Virus record (IMG/VR): IMGVR_UViG_3300050132_000146
Location: 1,105 to 65,104 of that record
Reading direction: 5' to 3' (one strand)
Source of the DNA: a virus
Lineage: Duplodnaviria > Caudoviricetes
Length of the DNA: 64,000 nt
The notes under the pieces were generated by a model. The model did not search any database. It saw only the letters and a list, made by a program, of their open reading frames with translations, and was not told the origin of the DNA. Positions 6,937 through 63,428 of this stretch are shown here, piece by piece. A program made the translations under genes and the position numbers. Position 1 is the stretch's first letter; the number at the start of each line of letters is the position of its first letter.

Positions 6937-7187
6937 CCAGAAAGCCAATCATCTTTGCAGGTTTGCCAAAGACTGTTTCAGAGCAGAATCAGTTGGATCA
7001 GTACAACCATGGTGTGAAATGGTCCGAATCAAAGCCAGCATCAATCGCAGGAAACTGGATGGGGCCGCGTCAGATCCCACCGGCATATGGACAGCAAAGA
7101 CCCGCTCCAACGAAGAATATACTTCGTGTGAGCGGGTCGCTGAATTTGCTATCAATCAATGGCAGGGTGCTTTTGTCTCCCCAGTAG
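6933..7187 (+). CDS. Hypothetical protein (tail region)
   Basis: ATGA-coupled 84-aa ORF. Confidence 0.45.
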   Translation: MTRKPIIFAGLPKTVSEQNQLDQYNHGVKWSESKPASIAGNWMGPRQIPPAYGQQRPAPTKNILRVSGSLNLLSINGRVLLSPQ

Positions 7188-8854: not shown

Positions 8855-8856
8855 AA

Positions 8857-9447: not shown

Positions 9448-10143
9448 GTGTTTATTTCTTGCTGAATACTTTTGTCCAATGGAGAATGAGGCTGGTTGGC
9501 GTGGGGTTATCCCCATCCGTAATCCGACAGCAACATGTTTTTCCTGGTCTTGTGCATTCGATCCACCAGCATCCATCCCATGCCAAACACGGCTTCTGCC
9601 CAATCCTGCATACTGCATGTTGGTTGAAGTGGTTTACTGAGGTTTGGGTGGCGTCTAGCGATTGCACGGCTGCATTTAAACATAACGGACGGTGTTGTCA
9701 AGGGGAATTTGCACGGACGTTTGTTGTGCGGTTTTTGCTCATTTGCATGGACGGTGCTGGCCCTGGGGCGATTTTGCGAATGTCGAATTATATTCAATAA
9801 GACAAACAAACATAAAGTATTATAATGTATCACAAACACCCCTTGCCAGAATGTTAGAATTTCCATAAATTAATTTAAAAATGAATGAAAATATCGCATG
9901 ACGAACGGGAAACCCTCTCTACCTTGTATTCACCGGAAGGCTTCATCGCCTCCCCTATATGCGGATCACCCCTAACACGGTGGACACCCCCATGTCATCA
10001 AGCCAAAGCGCGAAAGCGAGGTGCGGCTAACCCTATAATTTCCAGCGATGTTTTCAGGCACGGCTTGCGCATCTGATTTCTGCCATCCCCTAATAGCTTC
10101 ATGGTGAATCTATCGGATGGCAGAATTCAGAACACATACCCAT

Positions 10144-28323: not shown

Positions 28324-28988
28324 GAAAAATGAAGAAAGTTCTAGACAAATGTGAAAGATGTGAGAAGTTGACTCGTTGTACTCAACATGAGGTTCTCTAT
28401 TCGCTAGTACCGGACAGAAATCTGAGATGATCGAATAGATTGAACCAGGACAGCCCAGACTTTAGCGAGTACTAGTCGCTAGAATCTGGGCTCTTCTATA
28501 CTCACGACCCAGACATTACTAACAGCGGCATTCTTGGCTGGCCGCTATATAAACCATACGAATCAAAACAACTCTGAAGGAGCACCGAACACTCGCCATG
28601 TAGCGAACCAGTAGACCCCACAGAGGCACCGCGCAGATTAGTTCTTTGCGGTATCAGCACGAAAACGTGTTGGAGTGGCCCACCGTCATTCTGACAGGCG
28701 CAGTGTTAACGGAGGTTTGGAGATGATTTACTCGATCATTGAGAGTTCCCTGTGCTGAGTCCACCACGTTCACCAAGACTGGCATGATTCCCGTCAAAAC
28801 ACATTGAGGATCAATTCTGAGAGAACATAGCCTTGTCGGGCTCAAGACACCAAAACAGAAAATCCTACTAGCAGGCTCCGTGACCTTGGCTCCAAACCAG
28901 AAGATCAGACTACTCGGAATACAGTCTATCCTATTAAAACAGGACGACTTTCCAAGCCTCACCATGCCCATTCACCACCCAGAAGCCA

Positions 28989-42860: not shown

Positions 42861-45236
42861 ATGGCACCCTTCCAAAAGATCACGACAACAGAAGACATGC
42901 TTGGTGACATCACCAAGGTCACAATGCCGTTCTCGGACGAGGCCGAGATGGGCATCCTGTCCTGCATCATCCAAGATCCTCGCCACTGCCTTGACGAAAC
43001 CCGCACCGCAATCTCCCCAGACGCCTTCTACCACCAGAAGAACCGGCATGTTTACGAGGCTATCCTGACCCTCACCGACACAGGCAAGCCGGTGGACATT
43101 GTGACGCTTACCACTGAGCTTCGCGCTCAAGGTCTACTGGAAAAGGTTGGCGGCGGTGCTCAGATTTCAGAGATTTACACCTTCATTCCGGTTTCGGCTC
43201 ACTTCCCGTTCTACCTAGCAATCCTCAAGGAGAAGCATTGTTCGCGTCAGGCCGTACGTATCGGCGCAGAGATCATCCAGATGGCTCGTGATTCGCACGA
43301 GGACGCGGCTACGGTAGTGGCTGAGACTGACAGGCTGGCAATGCAAATTCACACGGATCATGATTCAGGTCAAATTGATACCATGGGTAGTCTGGTGGCG
43401 GAAGCGTTTGAGTATATCGAAACTCAGATGAAGAATCCGGGTGGGATTCCCGGACTGACGACCGGGATTGCTCAGCTTGATGACAGAACTGGCGGAATCG
43501 TTCCAGGAGAGGCTTGGATCATGGCTGGTGGAACCAGCGACGGTAAGGCGCAGCCTTTAGATGCGAAGATTTTAACACCGAATGGATTTGTTTTCATGGG
43601 TGAAATTAAGGTTGGGGACTTTGTGATTGGAGTTAATGGGTGTCCGGTTGAGGTACTGTCTGTTTATCCACAGGGAATTAAGGAGGTGTTTAGGGTTCTA
43701 ACGAACGATGGATACTCGACAGAATGCTGTGATGAGCATTTATGGTTAACGAGCACATGGAAAAATAGGTGTAAAAAAACCTCAGAACAAGTGAGGCCTC
43801 TTTCAGAAATACGAAAGACACTGTTTGCATCTGGAAGAACCAGGCTTAATCACCAGCTACCGGATCTTGCTCCAGTACAGTTCAATTCAAACAAAACACT
43901 ACCGATGAATCCATGGCTTCTTGGGGCGCTTCTTGGAGATGGGTGCCTTTGTGCAGGAAATATCAAATTCACAAATCAAGATCAAGACATTGTTGAGCGA
44001 GTTAGGAAATGTATTCCAGATTGTGATATAATGACGTGTGATCCCAATAGGCCTATAGAATTTAGGGTGAAGAGAAAGCAAAGAAATAACCAGCAGTCTG
44101 AAACAAAATCTATCATAGAATCTCTTGGGCTTCTCGGAACGGATAGTTCCACCAAGTTCATTCCCAATGAATACAAGTTAGCCTCAGTTGAGGATCGTAT
44201 TGAAATTTTGCGAGGACTCTTCGATACAGATGGAAGCGTAATGAAGGGAATGTCAGTTGATTATAGTACCTGCTCAAATAAACTTGCAGATGATGTGGTT
44301 TGGATCGTCCAGTCACTTGGGGGAAGCGCCAGAATCAGGGAGAAGTGGCCTACCTGCATGTATAAAGGTGTAAAAGTCACTGGGCAGCTATCGTATAGAA
44401 TCGTCGCCAAGTTCCCCAAACACATAATCCCGGTATGGACTGTGAAAAAGAGAAAAAGGTGGACCGGAAGAACTCGCGGTGGTCACAGATTCATTGAATC
44501 TGTCACTCCTATTGGACAAAAAGAGTGTCAGTGCATAAAGGTCACTGGAGGGCTCTACGTGACCGACGGGTTCATTGTGACCCACAATACCGCTTTGGCG
44601 ATGCAGGTGGCCCTGGAAATGGCCCTAGCGGGAGCGCCAGGAGCCTACTACCTCTGCGAAAGTTTGAAAGTGAAGTGGACCATCCGACTTTTGGCTTGTT
44701 TGAGCCGGGTTCCGATGAAACATATTCTTCGTGGAACACTCACCAGGGAGATGCAGCAACAGGTCGGTGTCGCTGCCATGAAGCTCCAAAAGCTCCCCAT
44801 CACCCTCAGGCACAAGCCAGGGATTGAGGTAACGAAGATGGTTGCTGACATTCGGATGCTGAAGCGCAAGCTTGGAATCAAGTGGTACGTGGGCGACTAC
44901 CTTCAGCGCATCAGCAACTCTGGGTGCAAAGGAAATCGTCAGGAGTATATCGCTGAGATTAGCAAGAGGCTCACGGACGTTGGGTCTGAGCTTGGGGTTG
45001 GGTCTATAGTTCTGAGCCAGCTTAACCGAGAGGGTCAAGTGCGTGAATCAGATGCCCCCACCCATGATGCCGACGTTGTGATTACATTGTCGGTACCAGA
45101 AGAGAAGCAGAACGGGAAAATGGTTAGGAACGAGGCAAAGAGGGTGCTGAGTATTGGGAAAGCTAGGAACGAGGAGCGCGGGCGGACCATAAACCTCATG
45201 TTCCAGGGTGAGATCCAAAGATTCACTGCGGTTTAG
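42861..45236 (+). CDS. dnaB: Replicative DNA helicase with an intein
   Basis: N-domain 'EAEMGILS' and 'VDIVTL', then 'GLTTG..LD', P-loop 'GGTSDGK|T', 'DYLQ', 'LSQLNRE' and 'DADVVI'. Confidence 0.92.
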   Translation: MAPFQKITTTEDMLGDITKVTMPFSDEAEMGILSCIIQDPRHCLDETRTAISPDAFYHQKNRHVYEAILTLTDTGKPVDIVTLTTELRAQGLLEKVGGGAQISEIYTFIPVSAHFPFYLAILKEKHCSRQAVRIGAEIIQMARDSHEDAATVVAETDRLAMQIHTDHDSGQIDTMGSLVAEAFEYIETQMKNPGGIPGLTTGIAQLDDRTGGIVPGEAWIMAGGTSDGKAQPLDAKILTPNGFVFMGEIKVGDFVIGVNGCPVEVLSVYPQGIKEVFRVLTNDGYSTECCDEHLWLTSTWKNRCKKTSEQVRPLSEIRKTLFASGRTRLNHQLPDLAPVQFNSNKTLPMNPWLLGALLGDGCLCAGNIKFTNQDQDIVERVRKCIPDCDIMTCDPNRPIEFRVKRKQRNNQQSETKSIIESLGLLGTDSSTKFIPNEYKLASVEDRIEILRGLFDTDGSVMKGMSVDYSTCSNKLADDVVWIVQSLGGSARIREKWPTCMYKGVKVTGQLSYRIVAKFPKHIIPVWTVKKRKRWTGRTRGGHRFIESVTPIGQKECQCIKVTGGLYVTDGFIVTHNTALAMQVALEMALAGAPGAYYLCESLKVKWTIRLLACLSRVPMKHILRGTLTREMQQQVGVAAMKLQKLPITLRHKPGIEVTKMVADIRMLKRKLGIKWYVGDYLQRISNSGCKGNRQEYIAEISKRLTDVGSELGVGSIVLSQLNREGQVRESDAPTHDADVVITLSVPEEKQNGKMVRNEAKRVLSIGKARNEERGRTINLMFQGEIQRFTAV
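43548..44588 (+). mobile_element. Ala1 intein with LAGLIDADG endonuclease (class 3 WCT signature)
   Basis: Starts 'AQPLDAKILTP', with 'EHLW', 'GALLGDG', 'LRGLFDTDG' and 'CQCI'. Ends 'VTHN|T'. Confidence 0.92.
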
Positions 45237-46843: not shown

Positions 46844-46915
46844 ATCGCATTCGTCTATCGGTAAGGACAGCAGCTTTTCAGGCTGCATAGAGCAGTTCGA
46901 CTCTGCTATGCGATG
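46844..46915 (+). tRNA. tRNA-Glu(TTC)
   Basis: Acceptor ATCGCAT/ATGCGAT, anticodon arm GCAGC-TTTTCAG-GCTGC, T-loop TTCGACT. No encoded CCA. Confidence 0.88.
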
Positions 46916-46928
46916 CTAGTTTGAAGTA

Positions 46929-47016: not shown

Positions 47017-47272
47017 ACTTCTCCAGATCGACGTGACGATAGCCATTACGCCAGAGGAAGGTGCTGAGCATCTTTGCCTCTTTAGTAACCTGCTCCTCTG
47101 ACCTTAAAAAGTCTAGGTGGTGCATATATTCGTGGCACGTCACCTCAAGCCTCCGAAGCGGGGAGAGCCTTGGGTCTATGAGTATTCGACCGTCTTCGAA
47201 ACACATGCCGTCGGCTCCTCTAGAGCGGAGTTTTGTGTACTCTATGATTGGGTATTTTGGCTTGCGCGGCAT
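47015..47272 (-). CDS. Small HExxH metallopeptidase-like phage protein
   Basis: 'ADGMC...ILIDPRL...EVTCHEYMHH...EEQV'. Confidence 0.75.
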   Translation of the reverse strand: MPRKPKYPIIEYTKLRSRGADGMCFEDGRILIDPRLSPLRRLEVTCHEYMHHLDFLRSEEQVTKEAKMLSTFLWRNGYRHVDLEK

Positions 47273-48000
47273 AGCTTTTTCTTTCTGCTCAGTGATTGAT
47301 TAACGGGTGTTTTTAACGCATCCACGAATGACATTCCTTTACTCATTCTGTATTTCAATGTAACTGGAGATATTGAATATTCTCTACACCAATCAAGGCT
47401 TAATTTTGTCGCACCATCAAGTTCATATCGTTTTTGAACGATACTATTTGGTGTGCATACAAGAGGCTTTGTAACAGCATCGCAAACAGACCATCCAGCG
47501 CGTATCCTGTCCATTATGTTTTTAGACTTAACACCAAATACAGAAGACCACTCTATTGCAGTAAGAGTTCTTCCAAATGCGCTGAATTTCAGCTGGTTAA
47601 TTTCCCTCAGATGATCCTTCCTCTCCTGACTTAATCTAAGCAACTTCATCTTTGCTAATTGAGATTCGCCCCACTTTCTTCCGAGTGTTGGTCTTGACAC
47701 ATCAATGGCTATATTATATTCTGGATCAGATTCATTTATTGACAATTGCTCAATTGGCAAACACTCCTCTTGCTGACACACCATGATTATCTCAAATGAG
47801 AAGCTTTTTTCTCCGTGCTTTGTCCACGATCTCTGTAGATGCTCGTTGTGATGAATACCCCTCCTTAAAAGAGATTTATGAGTTGCCCACCTTGCCCTAA
47901 ATGAATATGATGCAGAGCCAATATATGACTTACCGTTCACATTGTTTTTTATTCGGTAAACACCAGTACTATTCAAATAGGGATTAATATACTTTTCCAT
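47242..48000 (-). CDS. GIY-YIG homing endonuclease
   Basis: 'GVYRIKNNVNGKSYIGS...RWATH...HLQRSW...E...YN'. Confidence 0.9.
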   Translation of the reverse strand: MEKYINPYLNSTGVYRIKNNVNGKSYIGSASYSFRARWATHKSLLRRGIHHNEHLQRSWTKHGEKSFSFEIIMVCQQEECLPIEQLSINESDPEYNIAIDVSRPTLGRKWGESQLAKMKLLRLSQERKDHLREINQLKFSAFGRTLTAIEWSSVFGVKSKNIMDRIRAGWSVCDAVTKPLVCTPNSIVQKRYELDGATKLSLDWCREYSISPVTLKYRMSKGMSFVDALKTPVNQSLSRKKKLCRASQNTQS

Positions 48001-48997
48001 CTACAACGGAGTGGTTGGATACGTGAAATTCCTTGTCACCAATTGTGTCCACAATAATGAAACCATGAGACCATCGGTTCACGGGCATGAAGCGCGGGAA
48101 AAGTCCCGCCAGGCACCCAGAAGAGAAGGTAGATATGGTGCGCCTGTCGCCCGGAACGCCAAGACAAATTGTGTGCTCGGATCGTTGGTGGTGATGTCCG
48201 CAGATAGCCGACACACCAAGCTTGTCGCAAAGACCCTTTGCTGGGCTAACCGGGCTTGTAGCACCCCCTTGTAATTCGTGTCCGTGTAAAATTTGTACAC
48301 CAGAGAGATTGGCAATTTGAGTAGACTCAATTTGAGTGAAACCGAACCTTTCGTATTGTAATACACTCGGCATCGAGAAGTTTGGAACACCAAGAAGAAC
48401 CGGCGCATTCTGGTTTAGGTATCGCTCGTAACGGGACTCATGGTTGCCAACTTTGGCATATACGTCGCACTTCTTAAACTTGGAACGAAGGTATGCGAAA
48501 AATTCAATACAGCCAGAAATCTCACCCTTAAGATCTCTTTCTCGAATGTCAGGACAATATTTTGACAAAGAATGGGCATCCCAGAAATCGCCATTTAGGA
48601 TGATGCGGGTACATTTGCGCTTTTGTCCATAGGAGATTGCGGCATCAAGAGCCACTGAATCGTGGTACGGAATATGCACGTCACTTAAAATTAGTGTTGT
48701 GCTATCACCTAGAAGATCAATCGGGTCGCATCCATCCGGCCTGCTTTTGGGAAGTGAGAGCATCGGGCTTTTCCATCCCTTTGGCCTAGCGTCACGAGCA
48801 ATCTGTGGGTGCTCAGTGGATTCACCACTCACTCCGCGAATTCTCTGTACTGTCCTGCGGGCATTCTCGACGCTTGGGAACAGGGCGGTTTCACAAGCAT
48901 GTAGTGCCCGTGCTACGGTTTTGTTGGGAGAGTCACTAAAACGCCTTGAATAATCTAGCGCCACCTGAGTCCGAATCGTTGCCGTTGGCTTTTCCAT
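47984..48997 (-). CDS. Calcineurin-like metallophosphoesterase
   Basis: 'SDVHIP', 'NGDFWD', 'GNHE', 'HGH', 'GHHH'. Confidence 0.9.
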   Translation of the reverse strand: MEKPTATIRTQVALDYSRRFSDSPNKTVARALHACETALFPSVENARRTVQRIRGVSGESTEHPQIARDARPKGWKSPMLSLPKSRPDGCDPIDLLGDSTTLILSDVHIPYHDSVALDAAISYGQKRKCTRIILNGDFWDAHSLSKYCPDIRERDLKGEISGCIEFFAYLRSKFKKCDVYAKVGNHESRYERYLNQNAPVLLGVPNFSMPSVLQYERFGFTQIESTQIANLSGVQILHGHELQGGATSPVSPAKGLCDKLGVSAICGHHHQRSEHTICLGVPGDRRTISTFSSGCLAGLFPRFMPVNRWSHGFIIVDTIGDKEFHVSNHSVVDGKVY

Positions 48998-52691: not shown

Positions 52692-53138
52692 ATGGCCGAC
52701 ATTTCCATCACCGCAGCCAACGTCGCAATCTCCGCGAATACTGATACTCAGGCGAAGCAGGCCGTAGCCGGTGCCACTATTACTGCGGGCCAGCCAATTT
52801 ACCTGGACCCAACTTCCACCCCAGCCGGTCTGGCGACCCCAGCAAAGACCCTTACCGCCGTCACTTCGGCTGTGGTTGGTATTTCGCTGAATGGTGCTTC
52901 TTCGGGGCAGCCTGTTGACTACGTCGTCCAAGATCAAGCCTTTGTTCCCGGTGGCACACTGGTTGCCGGTAAGGTCGTAATGCTCAGCGCTTCTACCGCT
53001 GGTGGTTTTATCACCCAGACCCCTACTGATTGGGATGTTACGGGTCAATTCGGTTGCATCCTTGGGATTGCCACGAGCACCACGACCATGAAGTTCAGGG
53101 CGAATGCGATCCAGCGTTCTGGTGTTGCTCACGGTTAA
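52692..53138 (+). CDS. Capsid cement/decoration-like protein
   Basis: 'AGATITAGQPIY...GISLNGASSGQPV'. Confidence 0.7.
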   Translation: MADISITAANVAISANTDTQAKQAVAGATITAGQPIYLDPTSTPAGLATPAKTLTAVTSAVVGISLNGASSGQPVDYVVQDQAFVPGGTLVAGKVVMLSASTAGGFITQTPTDWDVTGQFGCILGIATSTTTMKFRANAIQRSGVAHG

Positions 53139-53184: not shown

Positions 53185-53258
53185 TGCGGGGTCGTCTAGT
53201 GGCCCAGGACACGAGCCTCATAAGCTTGCATTCACAGGTTCGAATCCTGTCTCCGCTA
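53185..53258 (+). tRNA. tRNA with CAT anticodon (Met/fMet/Ile2 unresolved)
   Basis: Acceptor TGCGGGG/CTCCGCT with a 1:72 mismatch, loop CTCATAA, T-arm ACAGG-TTCGAAT-CCTGT. Confidence 0.88.
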
Positions 53259-53283
53259 CTAATTCGTAGATATACGATCACTC

Positions 53284-53575: not shown

Positions 53576-55342
53576 ATGGCTACAGCTACCGAAAAACCAG
53601 GACCAAAAGTAAACTTTCTTGAGCGTGCCATTGGTGCCGTTGCCCCATCGTGGGCTCTTGGTCGGGCCAAGGCCAATCAGGAGCTGATCAAGTATTTCAA
53701 TTATGACGGTGCCAACCCCGGCACTGCTCGCGGCAATTCTGGTGGTCTATATCGTAACGCCTCGCCTGAAACGGCGGCAATGACCCGCGACCGAATCAAT
53801 TTAATTTGGGAGGCGAGGGACATGGAGCGAAACTTCCCAATCGTCGCCGGTCTCCTAGACCGAATCGCCCAATACGCCTGCCACCGACTTGAATACAAGG
53901 CAATGACCGGCGACCCAAAGACCAACGTAGAATACGAGCGCTATTTCCACGACTGGTGCTCCCGTGCAGACATATCTGGACGCCTTCGTCTCAAAAACCT
54001 CTGCCAGCTCGCAGTCCGATCCTACTTCCGTGATGGAGATATGGGGTTCATCATGACGAAGCGCAACAACGAGCTTCGTCTTCAGCCCATCGAAGCTGAC
54101 CGTATCGGAAACCCGCTCCACAAGGTTCCGTCCGAACGTGAAATGGGTGGCGTAATCATTGGAAACGATGGTCAGCCTCTTGAATATGAGATTTGGAATC
54201 GCTCAAATACTAATCAGTATTCCAAGGATCACAACGAGAGTGCCGATAATTTCATCCACTTCTGGAGGCCAATTCGTTTTGATCAATATCGCGGCGTTTC
54301 TCCTCTTGCTCCTGTCATTCCTCATTGTCGAGACGCTTACGAGCTTATTGCCTTGGAGAAAGCTGCTTGCAAGCTTCAATCGTCTTATACGGTGTTTAAG
54401 CACCTCAAAGACCCTAATTCCAACTCGGCTCAGGCGGCGTGGGATCAAAAACCCACAATAAACTCACCTGCAAACACGGAAATCGTAGGCGGTAAGATCC
54501 AGACCGTGACCGATGCGGAGGATATTACCTTTGCTCCCGCCCAGACTCGTCCAAGCGGAGCGTTCATGCAGTTCCACGAGACTATTGTACGGCTCATCGC
54601 TCTTGGCGTTAACTTCCCGTTCGGATTCTGTTGGAACATGGGTGACTTTGGCGGAACAAGCTCACGCATCGAACTCAAGCAGGCAGAACGCCGAATTCAG
54701 GACATTCAGCAAATGCTTGTTGAGATCATCCTAAACCGTGTACGCGATCAAGTCATCAGCATGGGAATCGCAAACAAAGCAATCCCAGCTCATGCCAAAT
54801 GGCGCGAAGGTAGGTTCACATTCGGCGCTTGGCTTACCGCTGACGTTGGATACCAGACCAACGCTGACTTGCAGCTTATCCAGCTCGGATTGAAGTCCAA
54901 GCATCAGTGGGGTCAGGAAAACGACAACGACTTCGAAACCGTTCAGGACGAGCTGTATTCAGAAATCGAGTACCAGCGCAACCTCTCAGCAGAGAAGATG
55001 ATTCCTATGGAACTCCTTCCAGGAGGCAACCCAATGGCCACAGCGCTGCTCTCAGCGGCAGAACAGAGTCGTGAGTCACTTGCTACGCTCGAAGCCCAAC
55101 AGCAGCAGATGAACGCGCCTCCACCGCCTCCTCCTGGCCTCATCGGGTCAGTAGGCGACAAGGGCGTTAAGACTTTACTTGACTTGAACCAGCAGGTCGC
55201 TGATGGTGTTCTTCCGCGCCAGGCGGCGGTTCAGCAGGTGATGGCTATTTTTGGAACGACCGAGCAACAGGCTGAGGTTCTGGTTCCGCCAGCACCAAGC
55301 AAGAAAGATTTGAAATCAAAGTCGGTTGACGCGAAAGATTAA
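53576..55342 (+). CDS. Portal protein, lambda family
   Basis: 'EARDMERN', 'RDGD', 'LQPIEADRI', 'RFDQYRGVS', 'SSRIEL'. Confidence 0.92.
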   Translation: MATATEKPGPKVNFLERAIGAVAPSWALGRAKANQELIKYFNYDGANPGTARGNSGGLYRNASPETAAMTRDRINLIWEARDMERNFPIVAGLLDRIAQYACHRLEYKAMTGDPKTNVEYERYFHDWCSRADISGRLRLKNLCQLAVRSYFRDGDMGFIMTKRNNELRLQPIEADRIGNPLHKVPSEREMGGVIIGNDGQPLEYEIWNRSNTNQYSKDHNESADNFIHFWRPIRFDQYRGVSPLAPVIPHCRDAYELIALEKAACKLQSSYTVFKHLKDPNSNSAQAAWDQKPTINSPANTEIVGGKIQTVTDAEDITFAPAQTRPSGAFMQFHETIVRLIALGVNFPFGFCWNMGDFGGTSSRIELKQAERRIQDIQQMLVEIILNRVRDQVISMGIANKAIPAHAKWREGRFTFGAWLTADVGYQTNADLQLIQLGLKSKHQWGQENDNDFETVQDELYSEIEYQRNLSAEKMIPMELLPGGNPMATALLSAAEQSRESLATLEAQQQQMNAPPPPPPGLIGSVGDKGVKTLLDLNQQVADGVLPRQAAVQQVMAIFGTTEQQAEVLVPPAPSKKDLKSKSVDAKD

Positions 55343-55347
55343 AGACT

Positions 55348-58300
55348 ATGGAGCTTCCTAAAATTCCCTTCGGTGATGCAAAGCGTGCGCTGAAGCACAT
55401 GCTGAAGAAGAGTGGCGCGAAGATTAAACGCCAGGGCCTGGGGTCTGCTCCGGTTTATGTTACTCACGAAAAAGACCCCGCGATTAAAGCGGCTCAAGAC
55501 GCAATGGGACTGAAAGGAAATCATGTTTACATCGGTCGCGGGGAAGATCGTCTTCCTGGTGGTAAGCCAATTTTCCACAGCAAGGTGGTAGCTGCACTTC
55601 ACGAAACCGGACACTCACTAGATCCAAGGATTTCAGAACGCGGGACAGCCATTACGCATGGGCATCAAGGCACCGGTCACCTGTCCCCAAGCGAACAGGA
55701 GCATTTGAATATCGTCACTGAAAAAACAGCAAACAAGAATGCTCTTGGGGCACTAAAGGAAACCGGAGCAAAGGAGGGCGTCCAAAAGGCGTGGAAGAAA
55801 AACGCCAATCACCAGATGAAGGAGGGGTATCGAAAGCCATTGATTTCACGTCGATGGATGGCTGGTAAACTCCAGGCTGAGAAAGATGCCGGAAGAGAGC
55901 CATGGAACATGCGACCGGTTAAACCTAAATACTCGGAGATCAAAAAAGTTCTCCAAGAATCACCACATCTCCGCAAGAAAAACGTTGACCTATCGCGTAT
56001 TCAAAACCTGATCGAATTCATGGACGGACCACCTTCAATGCCAGAAATGCAGGGTAAATCGAAACTGAAGAAGCGCTTGCGGCGTAAGCTCCGTGAATTC
56101 GGCATGATCAGCGAAGTCGCGGGTCAGATGGCCACGCTTCCGCTTGAGAATAGCGTTGCTAAGAAGCTGAAGCCGATTATTAAGAAGGGTCTTTCTAAGC
56201 TTCCTGAGAAGTGGAAACCTTCTGAAGCATGGTCTGAGCGCATTGGAGACACGGCTTCGTACCTTCCTGGTACTGTGGCTGGCGCGGCTATTGGTGAGGT
56301 ACTTGGAAAGAAGAAGATGGATAAGCCAAAGGAGTTTTCTATTGGAAGCCTAATTAACGACGCCAATAGGCCAAGAAGCGATACAGACAGGCGACTTAAG
56401 GGTATTGGTGCTTACGGAAGCAACGCTGTAACCGGAGGTTTTACTGGCGCGGTGATTGCCGGGGCGCGGGCTGCTAAAAAGGGCGTTAACATTCATGATC
56501 CTAAAGCAATTGGTCCTCACTTCAACAGGGGTGCCGCCATTGGGGCTGGTGCCGGTCTGGCATATCGCGCTATCGCGCATAAAAAGATCAACAAGCTCTA
56601 CAAGGAAGACAAAAACATCAAGGCAGCAGCCTTACAGGTTCCGTTAATGACTGCCGCTGGCGCTGGTGCGCTCGGTGTTGGTGGTGCTATTGCTGCCACG
56701 GCAGCGGCTGGGCACCTGTACCGCTCACCCAAAACAATTGCCAAGGCCGCTGGTAAATCTAAGATTGGACGCAAGTTCAAAGCAGCACTGCTAAACCGTG
56801 AGCGTCACGCAAACCCGACCCGTCGTACCAAGGTCGTACCACACGGTAAAATCATCGACGCTAACACGGGTAAGCCAAATCTTGAGATCGCTGACAAGAG
56901 CACTCATAACCTACTGTCGGCTAAATACCCGGCGTTGACCCTATTCGCTGAAGAAATGAACGAACAGAAGAAACGCAAGAACTGGCAGACGGCAAAGGAC
57001 GCAACCAAGGTTGGCGCTGGAGTTGCTGGTATCGCTGGCATTGGACTGCTCACGCACAAGGGCAGTAAGGCTATCTCTGGTCTCGCCAAGCGCGGTCGCG
57101 CTGGATTGCGTGTTGCGGCAAGGAAGGCGTCTCAAACATCCGACTCCGTAAACAAGCTTGTAAATGAGCACGGCAAGGGAATTGCCACGTCAGCGCAAGA
57201 GGCTCTTGATAATATCAAGAACGCTACCGCCATGACTGGGGATATGGGGCGTATTTACGTTAAGGCCAAGGAGAATGTCACTGGGCATATTCCAAAGGCC
57301 GCTAAAGAGGGGTTCCATGAGGGCGTTCAGAGCAATAGGCCACACCTGGGTCGTCGCATCGCTAATGGACTCGGATTCCGTGTTCGCAAGGAAGAGCTAA
57401 AGGCCAAGATCCGCGAGATCTTCTTCAACTACCGAGACGAAGAATACGAACAACCCAAGCGCATCCTGACCGAAAAGGACCACGCTGAAATCGCAGCGGA
57501 TCGAAAGCATGTTCGCAACCTTGTTCTTGGCGGTCTGGCTACAGCTGGCGTTGGGGCTTATGCTGTGAGTGGGAATCCGTTGCTGAAGTCGGCGAGGAGT
57601 CATATTGGTAGCCTTCTCAAGGAGCACGCGCCTGATATTGGTCATTCCAAGACGGCTCGGAAATGGTTCCCACACTGGGAGGCTACACAGGCTAAGGCTG
57701 CTGAAAAGGTTGGTTCTACCGAAGTGCAGAAGCAGGAACTGGTTAAAACCCACAAGAAGGTTGGTGAGTATTTGAAGGAGGAGGTTGAAAACCCGTTAAA
57801 GGCTATTCATAAAAAGAAGCCAAAGGGTCCAATTCACGAGGCTTCAGCAAAACTGAAGCTCATCAACTTTGGCAAGGAAGACCAGCTCGTAGATACCCAT
57901 AACGTCTATTCCAAGCCGCTCGACGTAGCCACTGGAAAGTCCACGGGCCATGTCCGTGACTACGATGATAAGGGTAGGGCAACCGGAAGCCTGTCAAAGA
58001 TCTCACGCGAAGAAGCCATTGGTCATCATCAGGTGATCAAAGGTGTCTATCGCAAGGCTGAACAGGTACAAAAGCATGGTGGACGGGCCCTGAACCTAAT
58101 CCGTGACGCTGCTGACGTTGTTCGTGGCGAACCACGCGCCAAAGACCCGTGGGGCCGGAAGCGCAAGCGTGAATGGGAAAAGAGCTGGTTCAAGAATGCT
58201 GCTGGTGCCACGGTTGGTACAGTCGGCGCTCTTGCGCTAATCAAGAAGTTCCCAAAACAGTCTGAAAAGGTTGTTGATAAACTGAGCCACGCAAGCGATT

Positions 58301-58902
58301 TGTGGCACGGAACCAGCCGTCGTCGCCCACCGGAAGGAATGGTCGCAACTTCAGCTATTCTGGATTCTGTAAAGCACTTTGATTCAACCCTGAATGAGTT
58401 GGATTACACCGCCCCAGATTGGGATCTGCGCCATCAGCATCGTAAATCAGTGCGTGTCTATGCCCCGGAAGCGCACCCTCGTGAGCGTCGCGAGAAGAAG
58501 TGGCACGAGAAGATTGGTAATGAGCGCAAGATGTGGGCCGGTGGTGTATTAGCCGCTGGCGCGGTTGGTGCCGCAATTAATCACGGCGCATCTAAGGCAA
58601 AGTTTGCCAACAGATTGAAAAACGCAATAGCAAAATCAGCAGAACGTCACTCTGCTGATCTTGAGAAACACGCCCATTGGCAAGAGGCTGAAATTCATAA
58701 TACTGTACACGACGTTCTTCACAACTCAAGGCTTCCATCTCATTACAAAGAGCAGTTTCACTCAGAACTTGTGAATAGCGGAATTCATGACAGATCTGAA
58801 ATTGGTGCCGATAGGGAGAATGGGTCAAGGCTTATGCCCAGGATCAGAACCGAAACCCAGCCAGAACTTGATCTGAAGAATGGACACAAGAAGAAAGAAT
58901 AA
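55348..58902 (+). CDS. Large basic modular virion protein (candidate polyprotein/ejection cargo)
   Basis: Lies between the portal and the protease. Lys-rich, with Gly/Ala hydrophobic helices and an N-terminal 'LHETGH...E..AN' zincin-like motif. Confidence 0.75.
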   Translation: MELPKIPFGDAKRALKHMLKKSGAKIKRQGLGSAPVYVTHEKDPAIKAAQDAMGLKGNHVYIGRGEDRLPGGKPIFHSKVVAALHETGHSLDPRISERGTAITHGHQGTGHLSPSEQEHLNIVTEKTANKNALGALKETGAKEGVQKAWKKNANHQMKEGYRKPLISRRWMAGKLQAEKDAGREPWNMRPVKPKYSEIKKVLQESPHLRKKNVDLSRIQNLIEFMDGPPSMPEMQGKSKLKKRLRRKLREFGMISEVAGQMATLPLENSVAKKLKPIIKKGLSKLPEKWKPSEAWSERIGDTASYLPGTVAGAAIGEVLGKKKMDKPKEFSIGSLINDANRPRSDTDRRLKGIGAYGSNAVTGGFTGAVIAGARAAKKGVNIHDPKAIGPHFNRGAAIGAGAGLAYRAIAHKKINKLYKEDKNIKAAALQVPLMTAAGAGALGVGGAIAATAAAGHLYRSPKTIAKAAGKSKIGRKFKAALLNRERHANPTRRTKVVPHGKIIDANTGKPNLEIADKSTHNLLSAKYPALTLFAEEMNEQKKRKNWQTAKDATKVGAGVAGIAGIGLLTHKGSKAISGLAKRGRAGLRVAARKASQTSDSVNKLVNEHGKGIATSAQEALDNIKNATAMTGDMGRIYVKAKENVTGHIPKAAKEGFHEGVQSNRPHLGRRIANGLGFRVRKEELKAKIREIFFNYRDEEYEQPKRILTEKDHAEIAADRKHVRNLVLGGLATAGVGAYAVSGNPLLKSARSHIGSLLKEHAPDIGHSKTARKWFPHWEATQAKAAEKVGSTEVQKQELVKTHKKVGEYLKEEVENPLKAIHKKKPKGPIHEASAKLKLINFGKEDQLVDTHNVYSKPLDVATGKSTGHVRDYDDKGRATGSLSKISREEAIGHHQVIKGVYRKAEQVQKHGGRALNLIRDAADVVRGEPRAKDPWGRKRKREWEKSWFKNAAGATVGTVGALALIKKFPKQSEKVVDKLSHASDLWHGTSRRRPPEGMVATSAILDSVKHFDSTLNELDYTAPDWDLRHQHRKSVRVYAPEAHPRERREKKWHEKIGNERKMWAGGVLAAGAVGAAINHGASKAKFANRLKNAIAKSAERHSADLEKHAHWQEAEIHNTVHDVLHNSRLPSHYKEQFHSELVNSGIHDRSEIGADRENGSRLMPRIRTETQPELDLKNGHKKKE

Positions 58903-58929
58903 CCCGTTGACAATCGAAAAACAAAGAAA

Positions 58930-59409
58930 ATGAATACACTCGCTAAACTTGCAGAATTTGAAGCAAAGCTCGATACCGTGCTTTTTGACTCCCAGGAAGA
59001 TGAATCACATCCGGTTAAAAACGTCCTAAAGGCTGGCGCTGCCGTTGGTGTTGGTTATGGTGCTTATAAGGGTGGTAAGGCTGCTAAAAATGCACTCACC
59101 AATCGCTATGGCGTGACTGACGACATGGGTAATGTATCGGCCACTGGCGATATGATCAAGAAGGGTATCAAAAAGGATGTTGGAGACACAGCAGGTAGAG
59201 TGAAAGCGATCCCTGGTAAATTTGGTGATGCGTTTAAGTCGGCTCGTGCTGGCGCTTCCGAAGGTCTTGGACTCGACGTTCTTCCGGCATTGAAATCAGC
59301 CGCTAAGCGCAGCGTTGAGCGATTCTCTGAAAAAGATCTCGCCAAGCGCATTATCGAACTCGATACCCTCACTGACAAGATCATTGAACTTCGCGTAGCC
59401 CGCCAGTAA
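58930..59409 (+). CDS. Basic head-operon protein
   Basis: Similar composition, with the motif 'FEAKLDTVLF'. GTTGAC upstream. Confidence 0.7.
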   Translation: MNTLAKLAEFEAKLDTVLFDSQEDESHPVKNVLKAGAAVGVGYGAYKGGKAAKNALTNRYGVTDDMGNVSATGDMIKKGIKKDVGDTAGRVKAIPGKFGDAFKSARAGASEGLGLDVLPALKSAAKRSVERFSEKDLAKRIIELDTLTDKIIELRVARQ

Positions 59410-59411
59410 TC

Positions 59412-60368
59412 ATGCCACGCTACATCCACGTAAACGATGATCAGGTTCGTGAGAACGGACTTGGTGAAAGGATTCTTCGTAAAGGAGTAATCATTGGCGG
59501 AACCGTGGGCGGCGTGTCTAAAATCGGTGGCGTAAAGGGCGCGGTAATCGGAGCTGGAGCGGGACTGGCTGCTTCGCATATGATCAAAAAGATCCAGGAC
59601 CGCAGGGCGATTCGAGACGGTAATGTTTACGATAGGGATATTGAGCCAAATCAACTTGAAGCTATGAGACCTGGAATTTTGAAGGAGTTTGCGATTGATT
59701 TGGGCACTACGCCTGAGCCATATAAGCCATGTCCAATGCCGGTTTGTGATGAAGCGCCCAAAAGGTACTTTCCATCACTCTACATCGACAATAGCGGAGA
59801 GGATCTGAAGAAGATTCCAAACTCAGGTAAGGCCGTGATTACGTACAAGGTCAAGTCAAGGTCCAGTAATTGGAATGGTGAAAAGGAGACTCATGGCATG
59901 AATATCGAGATCCACAGTATTGCGCCGAAGCTGAAGGAGCTGGAGGCAGTTCTGGATGAGAGGTTGTTCGACTCAGCCGGTGCTCGCCCACGTACACCAG
60001 CAGGAACCTTTGAGTCCCAGGCGCAGAACGGTCTTCCTGATCCACTGTCGATCAAGAGGGCATACCAGACCGGGAGAGAGGATCAGTCTAGGGGGAATCT
60101 TGGACGTGGTATTATCGCTGCGGGTTTGGTGGGCGCTGCTGGATTGGCCGGACATAAGCTAGGCAAGGTTGCTGGCGTTGTGGACAAGAAGGCTTACGGT
60201 CAGGCAATGGGTCGAAAAGGGTACAAGGCGGCTCAGAACAGGGCTACGGTTGAGCGCGAGGGTCTTGGTAGCATGATCAAGCGTCAGGCTGACGAGATTG
60301 GTGTAAGGAAGAGCGTCGAGAGCGATCACCTGAAGGAAATTCGAGACCTCATGAAGAGGAAGAAATAA
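59412..60368 (+). CDS. Modular head-operon protein
   Basis: Glycine-zipper-like helices, plus 'LEAMRPGILKEF' and 'LEAVLDERLF'. Confidence 0.7.
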   Translation: MPRYIHVNDDQVRENGLGERILRKGVIIGGTVGGVSKIGGVKGAVIGAGAGLAASHMIKKIQDRRAIRDGNVYDRDIEPNQLEAMRPGILKEFAIDLGTTPEPYKPCPMPVCDEAPKRYFPSLYIDNSGEDLKKIPNSGKAVITYKVKSRSSNWNGEKETHGMNIEIHSIAPKLKELEAVLDERLFDSAGARPRTPAGTFESQAQNGLPDPLSIKRAYQTGREDQSRGNLGRGIIAAGLVGAAGLAGHKLGKVAGVVDKKAYGQAMGRKGYKAAQNRATVEREGLGSMIKRQADEIGVRKSVESDHLKEIRDLMKRKK

Positions 60369-60372
60369 TTAA

Positions 60373-60681
60373 ATGAATATACTGAATAAAAAGCTGGTTG
60401 AGTTGAATGCGCTTTGCGATGAGGCGTTGGTTGAGTTTTCTGATGAAAAGAAATCTTTGGTAAAAAAGATGGATGATTTTGAATCATCTCATCCTAAAAC
60501 AAGAAACGCCGCCCTCCTGGCTGCTGGTGCCTATCAGGGTCATATTGCGACAAAACATTGGAAAACCATCAAAGAGGATGCAGCTTACGCTGCCGATAAG
60601 ATTAAGAATGGATTTAAGTCTGGACACACCAAAGTCAAGGCTCATCTTCCAGATCTGAGCAAGGTTCACTTCCGTAAGTAA
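60373..60681 (+). CDS. Basic head-operon protein
   Basis: N-terminal motif 'LNALCDEALVEF'. Confidence 0.7.
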   Translation: MNILNKKLVELNALCDEALVEFSDEKKSLVKKMDDFESSHPKTRNAALLAAGAYQGHIATKHWKTIKEDAAYAADKIKNGFKSGHTKVKAHLPDLSKVHFRK

Positions 60682-60702
60682 ACAACTACCCAAAACACTC
60701 GA

Positions 60703-60736
60703 CAACCCAAACTGAGGAATCGGTTTGGGTTTCTTT
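60703..60736 (+). terminator. Intrinsic terminator
   Basis: AACCCAAACTGA-GGAA-TCGGTTTGGGTT followed by TCTTT. Confidence 0.65.
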
Positions 60737-60762
60737 GTTGACAATTCAAAACAACGATAATC

Positions 60763-62019
60763 ATGGCATCTCGCAAGAACAACGATCAAGAATTCCTTTT
60801 CGAATCCCATAATCTTGGGCTTGAGAACATTGATGCAGTGAACGGAATTATCCGTGGCGTTTCGGTGATCACATCCGGCGTAACTGCCCGTGGTCACAAT
60901 CTCCAGGTGGACATGAAGTGCCTGGAGCAGATGTGTGAGCTAGGCCAGAAGATGGGTAAGGTTCCGGTGAAGACGAATCATCGGACAGGGTTGGACGCCG
61001 TGAACGGATACCTAACGAATTTCGCTATCAAGGACAATAAGCTTAAGGCTGACTGGCACCTGCTGAAGAGTCACAAAGAGTTCCAACACTTGATTGAAAT
61101 GAGTGAGGTCATGGCCTCTAGTTTCGGCCTTAGTGCCGCATTTCTGGGTCGCTCAGTGGACGGCAAGAACCGCGAGATCTTCGATGAAGAAATCTCCCCA
61201 GGAAAGAATGTTCAGTACGTCCAGGATAATGGAAAGAAAGTAGTGCTTGGTCTTTCCGATAAGAGGTTTGCACGATGCTCTGAGTTAGTGTCGGTCGATG
61301 CAGTTGCTATGGCTGCTGCGAATCCAGATGGACTATTCGAATCCAAAGTTGACAATCGAAAAATAAACAATCATCAATCTATGAGCGATACTAACAAGAC
61401 CACCGAAGAACAACTTGCCGATCTGACGAAGCTTTTCGCTGCTCAGGCCGTTCAGGCTGAAACCCAGTCTGAAGCCATTAACCAGCTTTCTGCTACTCTT
61501 AACCAGCTTATCGAGTTCGCTACCAGCGAGGACGAAGAAGATGAAGACGAGGGCGACGATGAGGAAGAAGAAGACGAACCTAAGCATAAGAAGGGCAAGG
61601 AAAAGGGTAAGGATGGCGAAAATGAATATGCAGCCACCATTGAAGGTGCCATGCAGTATCTCGAAGCCAAGGTTCAGACCCAGCTTCAGAATGAGCAGGA
61701 TGCCCAGCTTTCCCACGCCTTCGAAGTGATCGAAGAAAAGGTGGTTGCTCTTACCGAGTTCAACGCCACCCTTCAGGCCGAAAACGAAGCTCTCCGCACC
61801 GCCTATAATAAGGCCAACGGTCAGTCTGCTATTCCTGGCCGCGAAAGCGCAGTACGACTTTTCTCGGCAAACGCTGAGTGCGATGAGTGGGAAGCCAAGG
61901 TTCATGAATTTGAAGCCGCTGGTGCCAAGAAGACCGAAGCCATTTCTAAGGCTATCGCCTTTGATGATGGCACCCTGTACCTGAAGCACCTTGAGCGTGC
62001 CGGTGCTGTGCGTAAGTAA
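60763..62019 (+). CDS. Prohead protease fused to a scaffolding domain
   Basis: Protease-like N-half 'GVSVIT.G.ARGH...NH...FGLS...SVDAV..AAANPDGLF' and an acidic coiled-coil C-half. Possible internal start at 61381. Confidence 0.8.
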   Translation: MASRKNNDQEFLFESHNLGLENIDAVNGIIRGVSVITSGVTARGHNLQVDMKCLEQMCELGQKMGKVPVKTNHRTGLDAVNGYLTNFAIKDNKLKADWHLLKSHKEFQHLIEMSEVMASSFGLSAAFLGRSVDGKNREIFDEEISPGKNVQYVQDNGKKVVLGLSDKRFARCSELVSVDAVAMAAANPDGLFESKVDNRKINNHQSMSDTNKTTEEQLADLTKLFAAQAVQAETQSEAINQLSATLNQLIEFATSEDEEDEDEGDDEEEEDEPKHKKGKEKGKDGENEYAATIEGAMQYLEAKVQTQLQNEQDAQLSHAFEVIEEKVVALTEFNATLQAENEALRTAYNKANGQSAIPGRESAVRLFSANAECDEWEAKVHEFEAAGAKKTEAISKAIAFDDGTLYLKHLERAGAVRK

Positions 62020-62045: not shown

Positions 62046-62417
62046 ATGAATCAACATAACAATATTTCGCTCACGCTGGCTACTAGCGTAGTCGCTCCCG
62101 CTTACAGCCGCCTCAAGGTGGTTACTGGCGGTCTCGTGGATCTCGCTGCTGCCGCTGATGGTACGCTGTGGATTGGTACCAACCTTCAGGACGCTGACCA
62201 GACTGTGGTTGGCCGTGACACTGTCGCCATTCAGGGCAAGTTCACTGGTATTCATTACGCCATCAATGGTGCTGCCACGGCGATTGCCGCTGGTGATGCC
62301 ATCCAGGCTGCTGATTCTGGCAAGGTCGCCAAATACAGCGCTGGTACTAAGATTGGTATCGCGCTTAGCCCATCGACTGCGGTTGGTGATGTGTTCAAAG
62401 TCATTTACCAGTATTAA
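62046..62417 (+). CDS. Capsid cement/decoration protein (DUF2190-like)
   Basis: 'AIAAGDAIQAADSGKV...IGIAL...AVGDVFKV'. Lies directly before the major capsid gene. Confidence 0.8.
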   Translation: MNQHNNISLTLATSVVAPAYSRLKVVTGGLVDLAAAADGTLWIGTNLQDADQTVVGRDTVAIQGKFTGIHYAINGAATAIAAGDAIQAADSGKVAKYSAGTKIGIALSPSTAVGDVFKVIYQY

Positions 62418-62462: not shown

Positions 62463-63428
62463 ATGTACGCAAATGCAGCTTCGGTCTCTCGGCCTGAAAT
62501 CTCCGCTTTCCTTGAGGAAGCCCAGGGGATTGAAAAACTCCTGATCGGCACCAAGGTCTTGCCGGTCTATACCTCCACCGCTCGCGCTGGTCGTTATCCT
62601 AAACTTCGTATCCAGCTCGGCGAACTGCTGAAGACTGGCGGCGATAAGCGTGCTCCTGATGGTACGTATTCGGAAGTCTCTCGTTCCTGGGAATGGGATA
62701 CGTTCGACTGCCAGGAATGGGGTCTTACGGAACGTATTGACGACGCTCTGCGTGAGGAAATGAAGAATTTCTTCGACCTGGAAGTCACCACTTCGAAGGC
62801 TGTTATGCGTCAGCTCATGCTGGCTCACGAACTGCGGGTTTCCACGCTGGTTATGAGTTCCGGTAACTCTGGCTTCACCGCCACGAATCCTACCGCTGAC
62901 TACACCGAAGCCAACCTTGCTACGATTAACTTCGCCAAGGATGTCACCGATGCTCTGGCTCGTCTGGAAGCAAAGGGTGTTGTCCCGAATACGCTGGTCC
63001 TCAGCCGTGACTTGTTCAACCGTGTGCGCCGAACCACGAAGCTGCAAAGCTGGGTGTTTGGTAATGCCCTGGTGAACAGTGGTAACGCTGACATTACGGA
63101 AAAGATGCTGGGTGATCGCTTCGGGATCAGTCAGGTTCTGGTCTGTGGTGCCAAGTATGACTCCGCGATCAAGGGTCAAGCTCCTGTTCTGACGAATCTG
63201 TGGGCTAATACCACGATCCTCCTGGCTGATGTCAAGGGTGGTGACTTTAATGCCGGTGGCTTTGGCCGGGCGATTACCTGGGGCGCTGATGTTCCTGGTG
63301 GTCTGTTCGCTACTGAGAGCTACCGTGTTGAAGAACGCCGTGGTGATATTATCCGGGTTCGTATGAACAATGCGAATAAGATTATCGACCCGACTGCTGG
63401 TGAGCTGATTACGACCAATTACGCGTAA
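62463..63428 (+). CDS. Major capsid protein
   Basis: 321 aa with strong codon bias. HK97-like features 'RAPDGTY', 'AHELRV', 'PNTLVLS'. Position and downstream terminator fit. Confidence 0.88.
   Translation: MYANAASVSRPEISAFLEEAQGIEKLLIGTKVLPVYTSTARAGRYPKLRIQLGELLKTGGDKRAPDGTYSEVSRSWEWDTFDCQEWGLTERIDDALREEMKNFFDLEVTTSKAVMRQLMLAHELRVSTLVMSSGNSGFTATNPTADYTEANLATINFAKDVTDALARLEAKGVVPNTLVLSRDLFNRVRRTTKLQSWVFGNALVNSGNADITEKMLGDRFGISQVLVCGAKYDSAIKGQAPVLTNLWANTTILLADVKGGDFNAGGFGRAITWGADVPGGLFATESYRVEERRGDIIRVRMNNANKIIDPTAGELITTNYA

Follow-up and report, generated by a model that had tools for sequence, protein, structure and literature searches.

The DNA analyzed here (hereafter, the window) is a 64000-nucleotide (nt) stretch of a viral genome, i.e., the 65104-base IMG/VR virus record IMGVR_UViG_3300050132_000146, which carries direct terminal repeats, minus its first 1104 bases; our subject is a short peptide motif that recurs in the proteins encoded between the portal gene and a protease-scaffold gene of its head operon. 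On the + strand, to which all positions refer unless indicated otherwise, this operon comprises, in order, the genes for the portal protein, p1184, p159, p318, p102, p418, a cement-like protein and the major capsid protein, which is the lambda order (portal, protease/scaffold, decoration, capsid) with four genes inserted after the portal gene. The inserted genes are bordered upstream by the gene for a lambda-family portal protein (53576-55342; 588 amino acids [aa]; PF05136 Phage_portal_2, E = 1.4e-40; phrog_21, E = 7e-44). The downstream border of the head module is the gene for the major capsid protein (62463-63428; 321 aa; phrog_1005, E = 1.8e-33), which is preceded by that for a cement/decoration-like protein (62046-62417; 123 aa; phrog_673, E = 5e-8, and a weak match to PF09956). 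Pfam and PHROG scans covered 28 of the approx. 89 open reading frames (ORFs) in the window.

The first of the four inserted genes, p1184 (55348-58902), starts 6 nt after the portal stop codon and encodes a 1184-aa multi-module protein with an isoelectric point (pI) of 10.1, which we treat as a candidate "polyvalent" cargo protein. It is followed by p159 (58930-59409) and p102 (60373-60681), which both encode small basic proteins, with the gene for the three-module protein p318 (59412-60368) between them. As these four proteins are predicted to be packaged, we refer to the region from the portal to the protease gene as the cargo block. Neither Pfam nor PHROG scans yielded a match for any of them, and no Pfam family matched p1184 at E ≤ 0.1. 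Their pI values range from 9.3 to 10.1, and each p1184 module has a pI between 9.3 and 11.1. The initial annotation had described the modules as basic with Gly/Ala membrane-like helices; they contain Gly/Ala-rich, moderately hydrophobic 17-mers (Kyte-Doolittle means of 1.3 to 1.6, which is borderline).

That annotation, made from the sequence of the window, had also proposed that related short strings ending in F divide p1184 into dissimilar modules and recur in the other proteins of the operon, and every string it listed was found where it had been placed. In p1184, the strings are LSRIQNLIEF (residues 215-224; 55990-56019; 13.6 bits), LSAKYPALTLF (residues 523-533; 56914-56946; 16.9 bits), LKAKIREIFF (residues 684-693; 57397-57426; 11.0 bits), ASAKLKLINF (residues 832-841; 57841-57870; 10.6 bits), which opens a block conserved in relatives, and TSAILDSVKHF (residues 1001-1011; 58348-58380), which lies between two universally conserved sub-modules; the first four of these served as seeds for the profile described below. 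The motif forms N-terminal leaders in p159 (residues 6-19; 58945-58986; 20.5 bits) and p102 (residues 7-22; 60391-60438; 21.1 bits), and p318 carries the motif at residues 82-93 (59655-59690) and 177-186 (59940-59969). The listed strings end in F at residues 224, 251, 330, 533, 693, 841 and 1011 of p1184, as well as at F19 of p159, F93 and F186 of p318, F22 of p102, and F11/F13, F192, F252 and F367 of p418.

A regular expression for the motif, L[SEDNK]A.{5,8}F, matched 7 times in five head-operon proteins (2181 aa), as compared to a mean of 0.59 matches in within-protein shuffles, none of which (0 of 2000) reached 7. The same expression matched 9 times in the other 83 greedily called ORFs of the window (16604 aa), giving densities of 3.2 matches per 1000 aa in the head operon vs. 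0.54 in the other ORFs. As this expression was chosen after the data had been viewed, the motif was then tested in other genomes. Three related viral contigs were found with p1184, and 45 more loci were found with an alignment of four p418 homologues; p418 used as a single-sequence query found no relative among the viral contigs, whereas the alignment-based scan succeeded. A profile built from 10 instances in the window, with matches of at least 5 bits taken as strong, yielded 12 matches among 193 unique cargo-block ORFs of the related viral contigs (77085 aa), but none among 515 other ORFs of those loci (114659 aa), none in shuffled cargo sequences and none in reversed cargo sequences. With the same profile, 16 loci from metagenome-assembled genomes (MAGs) yielded 3 matches upstream of the protease gene (21400 aa), vs. 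none downstream of it (26432 aa) and none in shuffles. None of the window ORFs outside the cargo block reached 5 bits, and controls never scored above 4.6 bits with an iterated version of the profile. Overall, these data confirm the existence of the motif, its conservation and its restriction to the block from portal to protease, in line with the enrichment over background that had been predicted for it.

The consensus of the window profile is KLVELSAKLDAxLF, which becomes KLVELSAKLDAILF after iteration and is then followed by acidic residues. Internal variants in the large proteins include ALSAKLKLREF-D and QLSAKLRLRELA; as the latter ends in L, the final F of the motif appears to be replaceable and is not its best-conserved part. 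The shorter strings RRKLREF, KPKEF and QEFLF, which had been counted as members of the motif and were not used as seeds, are absent among the best 90 of 195 cargo matches, and their membership is thus unsupported.

To describe the placement of the motif, we considered the 31 matches of at least 5 bits, among which 17 start within the first 40 residues of the protein, 3 are located in the last 15 residues and 11 are internal. Thirteen otherwise unrelated small proteins, including p159 and p102, align with each other only over a leader of approx. 20 residues at the N-terminus, with the form M-x-x-I-K-x-K-L-V-A-L-E-A-K-L-D-x-x-L-F, and are divergent afterwards. The ends of BLAST blocks cluster around the motif within proteins: 80 of 657 internal ends (from 22 proteins) were located no more than 10 aa from a motif, as compared to 23 expected, and none of 1000 random placements reached 80, although block ends are mutually dependent and the motif is a conserved island in its own right. 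Residues 77-172 of p318 correspond to the N-termini of two proteins of relatives (L005_8904 and L004_9153), so that this module begins at the motif, and residues 76-213 of p1184 resemble residues 324-456 of L027_5640 (E = 2e-8), with the motif terminating both. Nearly all relatives keep, in their first cargo gene, the region of p1184 between residues approx. 830 and 1080; one motif opens this region and a second (TSAILDSVKHF) divides it, and the two conserved sub-modules occur in swapped order in locus L008. TSAILDSVKHF itself aligns with the motif in 16 of 18 orthologues with approx. 30% identity, and its last position is F in 15 of the 18. These results support the proposal that the motif marks module borders in large proteins, where dissimilar modules begin or end at it across related phages, and forms an N-terminal leader on small ones. 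The number of identical residues encoded by the same codon was close to expectation (452 of 1274 vs. 431.5 expected), which indicates that selection acts on the peptide; an explanation of the motif as a DNA-level "recombination linker" was rejected for the same reason.

In the relatives, the proteins encoded at the place of p1184 range from 445 to 1956 aa, and Pfam scans of ten cargo proteins identified Metallophos, HNH_3 with DUF6321, and FG-GAP domains in three of them. For the conserved C-terminal module of p1184, protein-atlas scores did not exceed 0.77. Sequence searches of the PDB with three of the alignments made in this analysis returned coiled-coil noise or nothing. A Metallophos protein is located inside the cargo block of locus L003; the window encodes a metallophosphoesterase (phrog_221) adjoining a GIY-YIG endonuclease elsewhere, at 47242-48997 on the minus strand.

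Module 1 of p1184 contains the sequence HETGH (residues 85-89; 55600-55614) followed by S-L-D, which is the HExGH motif reported in the initial annotation and represents a candidate zincin-like metallopeptidase motif; HE..H recurs in a similar context in cargo of relatives (18 of 197 cargo ORFs). No match to this module was found in Pfam, in PHROGs or in a search for homologues of 123-392 aa. A protein atlas placed it among unnamed viral clusters and one cluster in which 14% of the members carry Peptidase_M78 (score 0.89), which we regard as a lead only. Among the 18 complete cargo blocks that bear the motif, 11 contain no HE..H inside the block, which argues that the putative zincin is cargo rather than the general processing enzyme.

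The last gene before the cement-like protein gene, p418 (60763-62019; 418 aa), had been called a protease/scaffold, and structural modeling supported the protease part of this label. An AlphaFold2 model of its protease domain (residues 1-192; 60763-61338), built from a 126-sequence alignment with a mean confidence score (pLDDT) of 85.8, had T4 gp21 (5jbl_A) as its top structural match (Z = 11.4; root-mean-square deviation 3.0; 130/165 residues), followed by herpesvirus proteases at ranks 2 to 36 (Z = 5.9 to 8.2), as compared to Z values of at most 5.2 for unrelated MCE-domain chains. Foldseek also returned 5jbl as its top match (E = 1.9e-3). All 90 full-length homologues share H73, S124 and D179; across the 126 sequences of the alignment, H73 never varies and S124 is kept in at least 90%. 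The family of this domain comprises 4746 representative clusters at E ≤ 1e-3, and Pfam contained no protease family that matched any of 24 family members at E ≤ 1, nor was p418 matched in Pfam or PHROGs. Overall, the model supports a prohead-protease fold of the T4 gp21/herpesvirus assemblin type for the N-terminal domain of p418, with H73 and S124 as its putative catalytic residues and p418 as a putative enzyme.

The second half of p418 (61384-62019), to which this domain is fused, is modeled with low confidence (pLDDT 47; 4 sequences) as long helices that end in a helical hairpin at the C-terminus, and it includes a stretch of acidic residues; the pI of the whole protein is 4.9. As its coding region precedes the cement and capsid genes, this half may represent the scaffold. 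It contains two of the strings considered here, i.e., LSATLNQLIEF (residues 242-252; 61486-61518; 2.2 bits) and LFSAN (residues 366-370; 61858-61872), in which F367 is kept in 63 of 90 homologues. We also observed that several representatives of the protease family, including P0013, P0052, P0091, P0099 and P0116, carry basic, Gly/Ala-rich, cargo-like sequence directly after the protease domain in place of an acidic scaffold, while they keep an F-x-A-[K/R] junction, which looks like a protease-cargo fusion architecture.

The junction between the two halves of p418 is the sequence L-F-E-S-K-V-D (residues 191-197; 61333-61353), a candidate self-cleavage ("release") site. It belongs to the conserved tail of the protease domain, A-A-N-P-x-G-L-F-[S/E]-A-[K/R]-V-D, which is unstructured in the model. 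Among the 90 homologues, the junction columns show F in 86, S in 42 or E in 36, A in 54, K in 36 or R in 18, V in 84 and D in 87. The pattern ΦF[SEQDA][AS][KRN] was found at the junction in 40 of these 90 sequences, approx. 50 residues from the C-terminus in 18, and nowhere else (0.025 expected per sequence). In 22 of 57 representatives positive for this pattern, V-D is absent while F-x-A-[K/R] is kept, so that F-x-A-[K/R] represents a protein-level feature. The core of the junction, F-[S/E]-A-[K/R]-V, is similar to that of the cargo motif, L-[S/E]-A-K-L, and when a matrix of the junction was used to search cargo sequences, the 4 best matches were all located inside leader motifs.

The Val-Asp pair of the junction lies within a possible second signal. 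The sequence GTTGACAAT followed by an in-frame ATG (Met207) at 61348-61383 is a candidate internal start for a nested scaffold protein, and the only three exact copies of GTTGACAAT in the window are all located on the + strand of the head operon, at 58906-58914 (24 nt before the p159 start), 60737-60745 (before the p418 start) and 61348-61356; copies with one mismatch numbered 17, vs. 17.95 expected, and thus showed no enrichment. In all 24 relatives in which the Val-Asp pair was located (36 genes examined), its codons are GTT GAC, with an ATG 5 to 11 codons downstream, as compared to a general codon use of 22% for GTT and 51% for GAC, and 65 of 90 homologues have a Met in one of two adjacent columns. 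In loci L002-L049, GTTGAC shows a peak 20 to 24 nt upstream of called starts, where it is found for 31 of 190 cargo ORFs and for 78 of the 516 other ORFs, as compared to an expectation of approx. 0.02 (0.019). No Shine-Dalgarno-like sequence was seen before the 15 starts inspected. GTTGAC may represent a clade- or host-specific gene-start signal, with a geometry unlike that of a simple -35 box. Judging from these conserved positions, the internal start at Met207 probably allows the scaffold to be produced on its own as well; lambda Nu3 is a comparable case of a nested scaffold gene.

The portal-to-protease layout was identical in every related locus that showed both genes, while the cargo block varied in length, with a minimum of 1.8 kb and a maximum above 10 kb. 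In the genome collection, all 16 loci with protease-domain matches (L051-L066) were located in Verrucomicrobiota MAGs, with taxa that include Opitutaceae, Chthoniobacter, Akkermansiaceae and Pedosphaera, which points to Verrucomicrobiota as the host phylum. As three of these 16 loci are on contigs of 104 kb to 1.95 Mb, some members of the clade appear to be prophages and thus temperate. The portal and capsid proteins showed only distant matches (20-26% identity) in the cultured-phage collection, and the accessible portions of the literature searched contained no description of the motif or the clade. The window had been attributed to a small siphovirus-like phage; while siphovirus-like is plausible, with a 1379-aa tape-measure-like protein encoded downstream of the head genes across the ends of the record, and with no sheath-sized ORF seen among the window ORFs, a phage of 64 kb is not small.

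The interpretation that we favor, and to which we give slightly less than an even chance, is that a shared tag serves both capsid targeting and cleavage on head-internal polyvalent cargo handled by an assemblin-fold protease-scaffold. The portal-to-protease genes would encode proteins of the head interior, all of them basic, with a single large "polyvalent" protein next to several small ones. The tag would be an amphipathic helix of approx. 14 to 20 residues (K-L-V-E-L-S-A-K-L-D-x-x-L-F) followed by an acidic or flexible stretch, and would draw the cargo into the assembling procapsid, probably via the acidic scaffold core (the pI is 9.3 to 10.1 for the cargo vs. 4.9 for p418). It would double as the recognition site for the putative prohead protease in the N-terminal domain of p418. 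After closure of the shell, the protease may cut itself loose at its ΦF[SE]A[KR] junction, which is conserved, and the released enzyme would then trim leaders and cut the polyprotein at internal copies of the tag, with the resulting basic proteins remaining in the head and presumably leaving it with the DNA. In this view, the copies at N-termini would act as leaders for targeting, and those inside proteins would be the sites of cleavage.

With regard to the position of the cut, the initial annotation had favored cleavage at or after the (E/L)F. The final F is variable, however, with L in its place in the variant QLSAKLRLRELA, and the ΦF[SE]A[KR] junction tail aligns at least equally well with L[SE]AK. 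We tentatively prefer a cut after the Ala of Φ-[SE]-A|K over a cut after the final F, as more positions match and as Ala precedes the cut in assemblins. In an alternative alignment, the junction L-F-[S/E]-A is matched with the motif end L-F-[D/A/E]-[S/T], which would fit a cut after F. A possible parallel for cleavage after Phe is Prp, a cysteine protease that removes N-terminal extensions ending in Phe from ribosomal protein L27 and from certain head proteins of Firmicutes phages.

A more far-reaching version, which we consider possible but doubtful, would apply to a widespread, uncultured clade of long-tailed Verrucomicrobiota phages. In this clade, a portable helical tag of approx. 15 residues would load arbitrary proteins into a lambda-like head of the HK97 fold, and a UL26-like protease-scaffold with a nested scaffold gene would recognise this tag as well and cut tagged polyproteins into up to 8 effectors injected along with the DNA, with the cargo block serving as a plug-in site for counter-defence cassettes. 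The effectors would be basic and either membrane-active or enzymatic (zincin peptidase, phosphoesterase, HNH nuclease and others).

Several results weigh against a tag that serves both targeting and cleavage. Matches of at least 2 bits were limited to 40 of the 197 cargo ORFs, and none occurred in 5 of the 23 complete blocks. Strong matches numbered 9 in the window vs. 0 to 3 in relatives; this richness of the window is partly due to the profile having been seeded from it. Three proteins (L005_8506, L044_5471 and L043_2308) end with the motif, which is easier to reconcile with a tag for binding than with a site of cleavage. The junction matrix was not enriched overall in cargo, with 4 matches vs. 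1.9 in shuffles at ≥ 10 bits and 8 vs. 5.6 at ≥ 8 bits, and 3 of the 4 top matches are orthologues; as V-D is fixed at the DNA level, moreover, just four residues of the likeness between junction and motif are unconstrained. The copy of the motif at residues 242-252 of p418 is not conserved in relatives. An hhalign comparison of the protease-family alignment with T4 gp21 was not significant (probability 0.2), so that the catalytic residues are assigned from their conservation together with the fold. Finally, neither p1184 nor the protease domain had a match in the cultured-phage collection, i.e., there is no cultured relative in it.

As some proteins end with the motif, a serious rival, although in our judgment an unlikely one, is that the tag serves for binding only, with the helix docking cargo to the scaffold, the portal or the shell interior, the repeats providing multivalency and the proteins remaining uncut, in a manner comparable to the cargo-loading peptide of encapsulins. 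Occurrence of the motif at C-termini as well as N-termini, the heptad-like hydrophobic spacing in the consensus and the pairing of basic cargo with an acidic scaffold would all be expected of such a tag. A single copy would suffice for loading, however, yet p1184 keeps at least five, placed exactly at module borders, and the operon encodes an assemblin-fold protease with conserved H and S and with a conserved tail that resembles the core of the motif. Cleavage could also be assigned to a different enzyme, if the motif were the cut site of a cargo-borne zincin-like metallopeptidase (the HExxH module) that processes its own polyvalent protein. While self-processing has been proposed for polyvalent proteins generally (Iyer et al. 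2017, PMC5512222, in its accessible portions), and while p1184 starts with the HETGH-S-L-D module and HE..H recurs in the cargo of relatives, this is improbable given the motif-bearing complete blocks without HE..H, a count that refers to the cargo block only, and a module that matched neither Pfam, PHROGs nor homologues.

Two further explanations dispense with processing. The motif could be a structural relic, with the modules representing diverged copies of an ancestral unit (leader helix, Gly/Ala helix and basic tail); each module is indeed alike in crude layout and composition, and many of the profile matches are orthologous to each other. A relic would not, however, account for a leader common to proteins without other detectable similarity, for conservation at approx. 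30% identity in a fixed spot between two unrelated conserved sub-modules, or for a motif never found outside the cargo block, and we thus give this explanation little weight. We give still less to the possibility that the proteins are not packaged but act in the infected cell as membrane or assembly-helper proteins, with the helix as an oligomerisation element. Their Gly/Ala-rich hydrophobic segments with basic flanks would suit such a role, but the hydropathy peaks are borderline for membrane spans, an N-terminal signal-like segment is absent, and, in 45 viral loci and 16 loci from MAGs, the position of the genes within the head-assembly operon is constant.

The tag proposed for targeting and cleavage has partial counterparts in known systems, which we describe here from the accessible portions of the cited papers. 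In T4, a capsid-targeting sequence (CTS) directs the internal proteins (IPI-III, Alt) to the core and is removed by gp21 (PMC9026906). As in T4, a short N-terminal peptide is common to otherwise unrelated basic head proteins and occurs together with a protease of the same fold. The tag described here is longer than the CTS (approx. 14 to 20 aa), helical and unrelated in sequence, and is also found at internal and C-terminal positions; its cleavage is predicted only. It also occurs with a lambda-like head module (PF05136 portal, separate scaffold and cement protein) in a 64-kb long-tailed phage. In phiKZ and SPN3US, a gp21-like protease recognises a short motif in many head proteins and processes them there, and the phages eject cargo into their hosts (PMC9026906, PMC5694885, PMC10052503, PMC7411985). 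These are jumbo myoviruses with cleavage motifs that end in Glu (S/A-X-E), and the accessible text does not describe a polyprotein with repeated tags for them.

Polyvalent proteins, as surveyed by Iyer, Burroughs, Anand, de Souza and Aravind in 2017 (PMC5512222), are large and multi-domain, are encoded beside portal and virion genes, and are predicted to be packaged and delivered; a zincin-like domain (an HExxH helix with a Glu downstream) is the commonest among them, and assemblin-like peptidases are tied to their processing. The survey also describes a phage-type metallopeptidase in which HExxH is followed by an Asp at a distance of three residues, and self-processing is predicted (PMC5512222). 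As a large, multi-module protein encoded next to the portal of a portal-terminase phage, p1184 resembles this class. In the accessible portions of the survey, however, no motif between domains or at leaders is defined, whereas here most modules are of no recognised fold and the tag is also found on separate small genes. MuF/SPP1 gp7, a head protein with variable effector domains, is likewise encoded beside the portal (PMC5512222); neither p1184 nor ten cargo proteins of relatives matched the MuF profile in Pfam.

The layout of p418 has its closest likeness in herpesvirus UL26/UL26.5, in which the scaffold is preceded, in one polypeptide, by a protease of the assemblin fold and an in-frame nested scaffold start is located just after the protease. 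The junction site and the second site near the C-terminus of p418 mirror the release and maturation sites of UL26, which in pseudorabies virus are YLQA-T and VQA-S, with Ala before the cut (PMC4498786). Unlike UL26, p418 belongs to a bacterial virus, and its putative sites and nested start are predicted from conservation. We know of no herpesvirus scaffold that loads tagged cargo.

Other features of the window include the gene for the large terminase subunit (24002-25795, minus strand) and tRNA genes for Thr-AGT (28412-28505), Glu-TTC (46844-46916) and Met-CAT (53185-53259); the Thr tRNA call is 94 nt, which is an unusual length. Just upstream of the Met tRNA and portal genes, a 148-aa ORF (52692-53138) without a family match has a start that resembles that of the same-position ORF in locus L004 (4497-4910), and may encode a second small head or neck protein. 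Two replication proteins (36969-38924 and 42861-45236), one of which is DnaB-like, share a block of approx. 360 residues that in both cases matches the same mixture of PHROGs of unrelated families (terminase, primase, helicase loader and endonuclease) and looks like an intein or homing-endonuclease insert. On the minus strand (7152-9618), a family-9 glycosyltransferase (heptosyltransferase-like) is encoded two genes from a methyltransferase-domain protein, with a 197-aa ORF (8261-8854) between them; these may represent surface-modifying accessory genes.

If the proposed combination of targeting and cleavage is correct, the logic of a targeting peptide that is also a prohead-protease site, as in T4 and jumbo phages, would extend to ordinary-sized long-tailed phages with lambda-like heads, here in a clade that appears to infect Verrucomicrobiota, for which, to our knowledge, almost no phages have been studied. 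Polyvalent proteins would gain a concrete processing signal, which is lacking in the accessible portions of the 2017 survey, and it would become possible to load foreign proteins into shells of the HK97 fold by means of a short tag. The herpesvirus-like layout of p418, with its likely nested start, adds to the evidence that links the assembly of tailed phages to that of herpesviruses.

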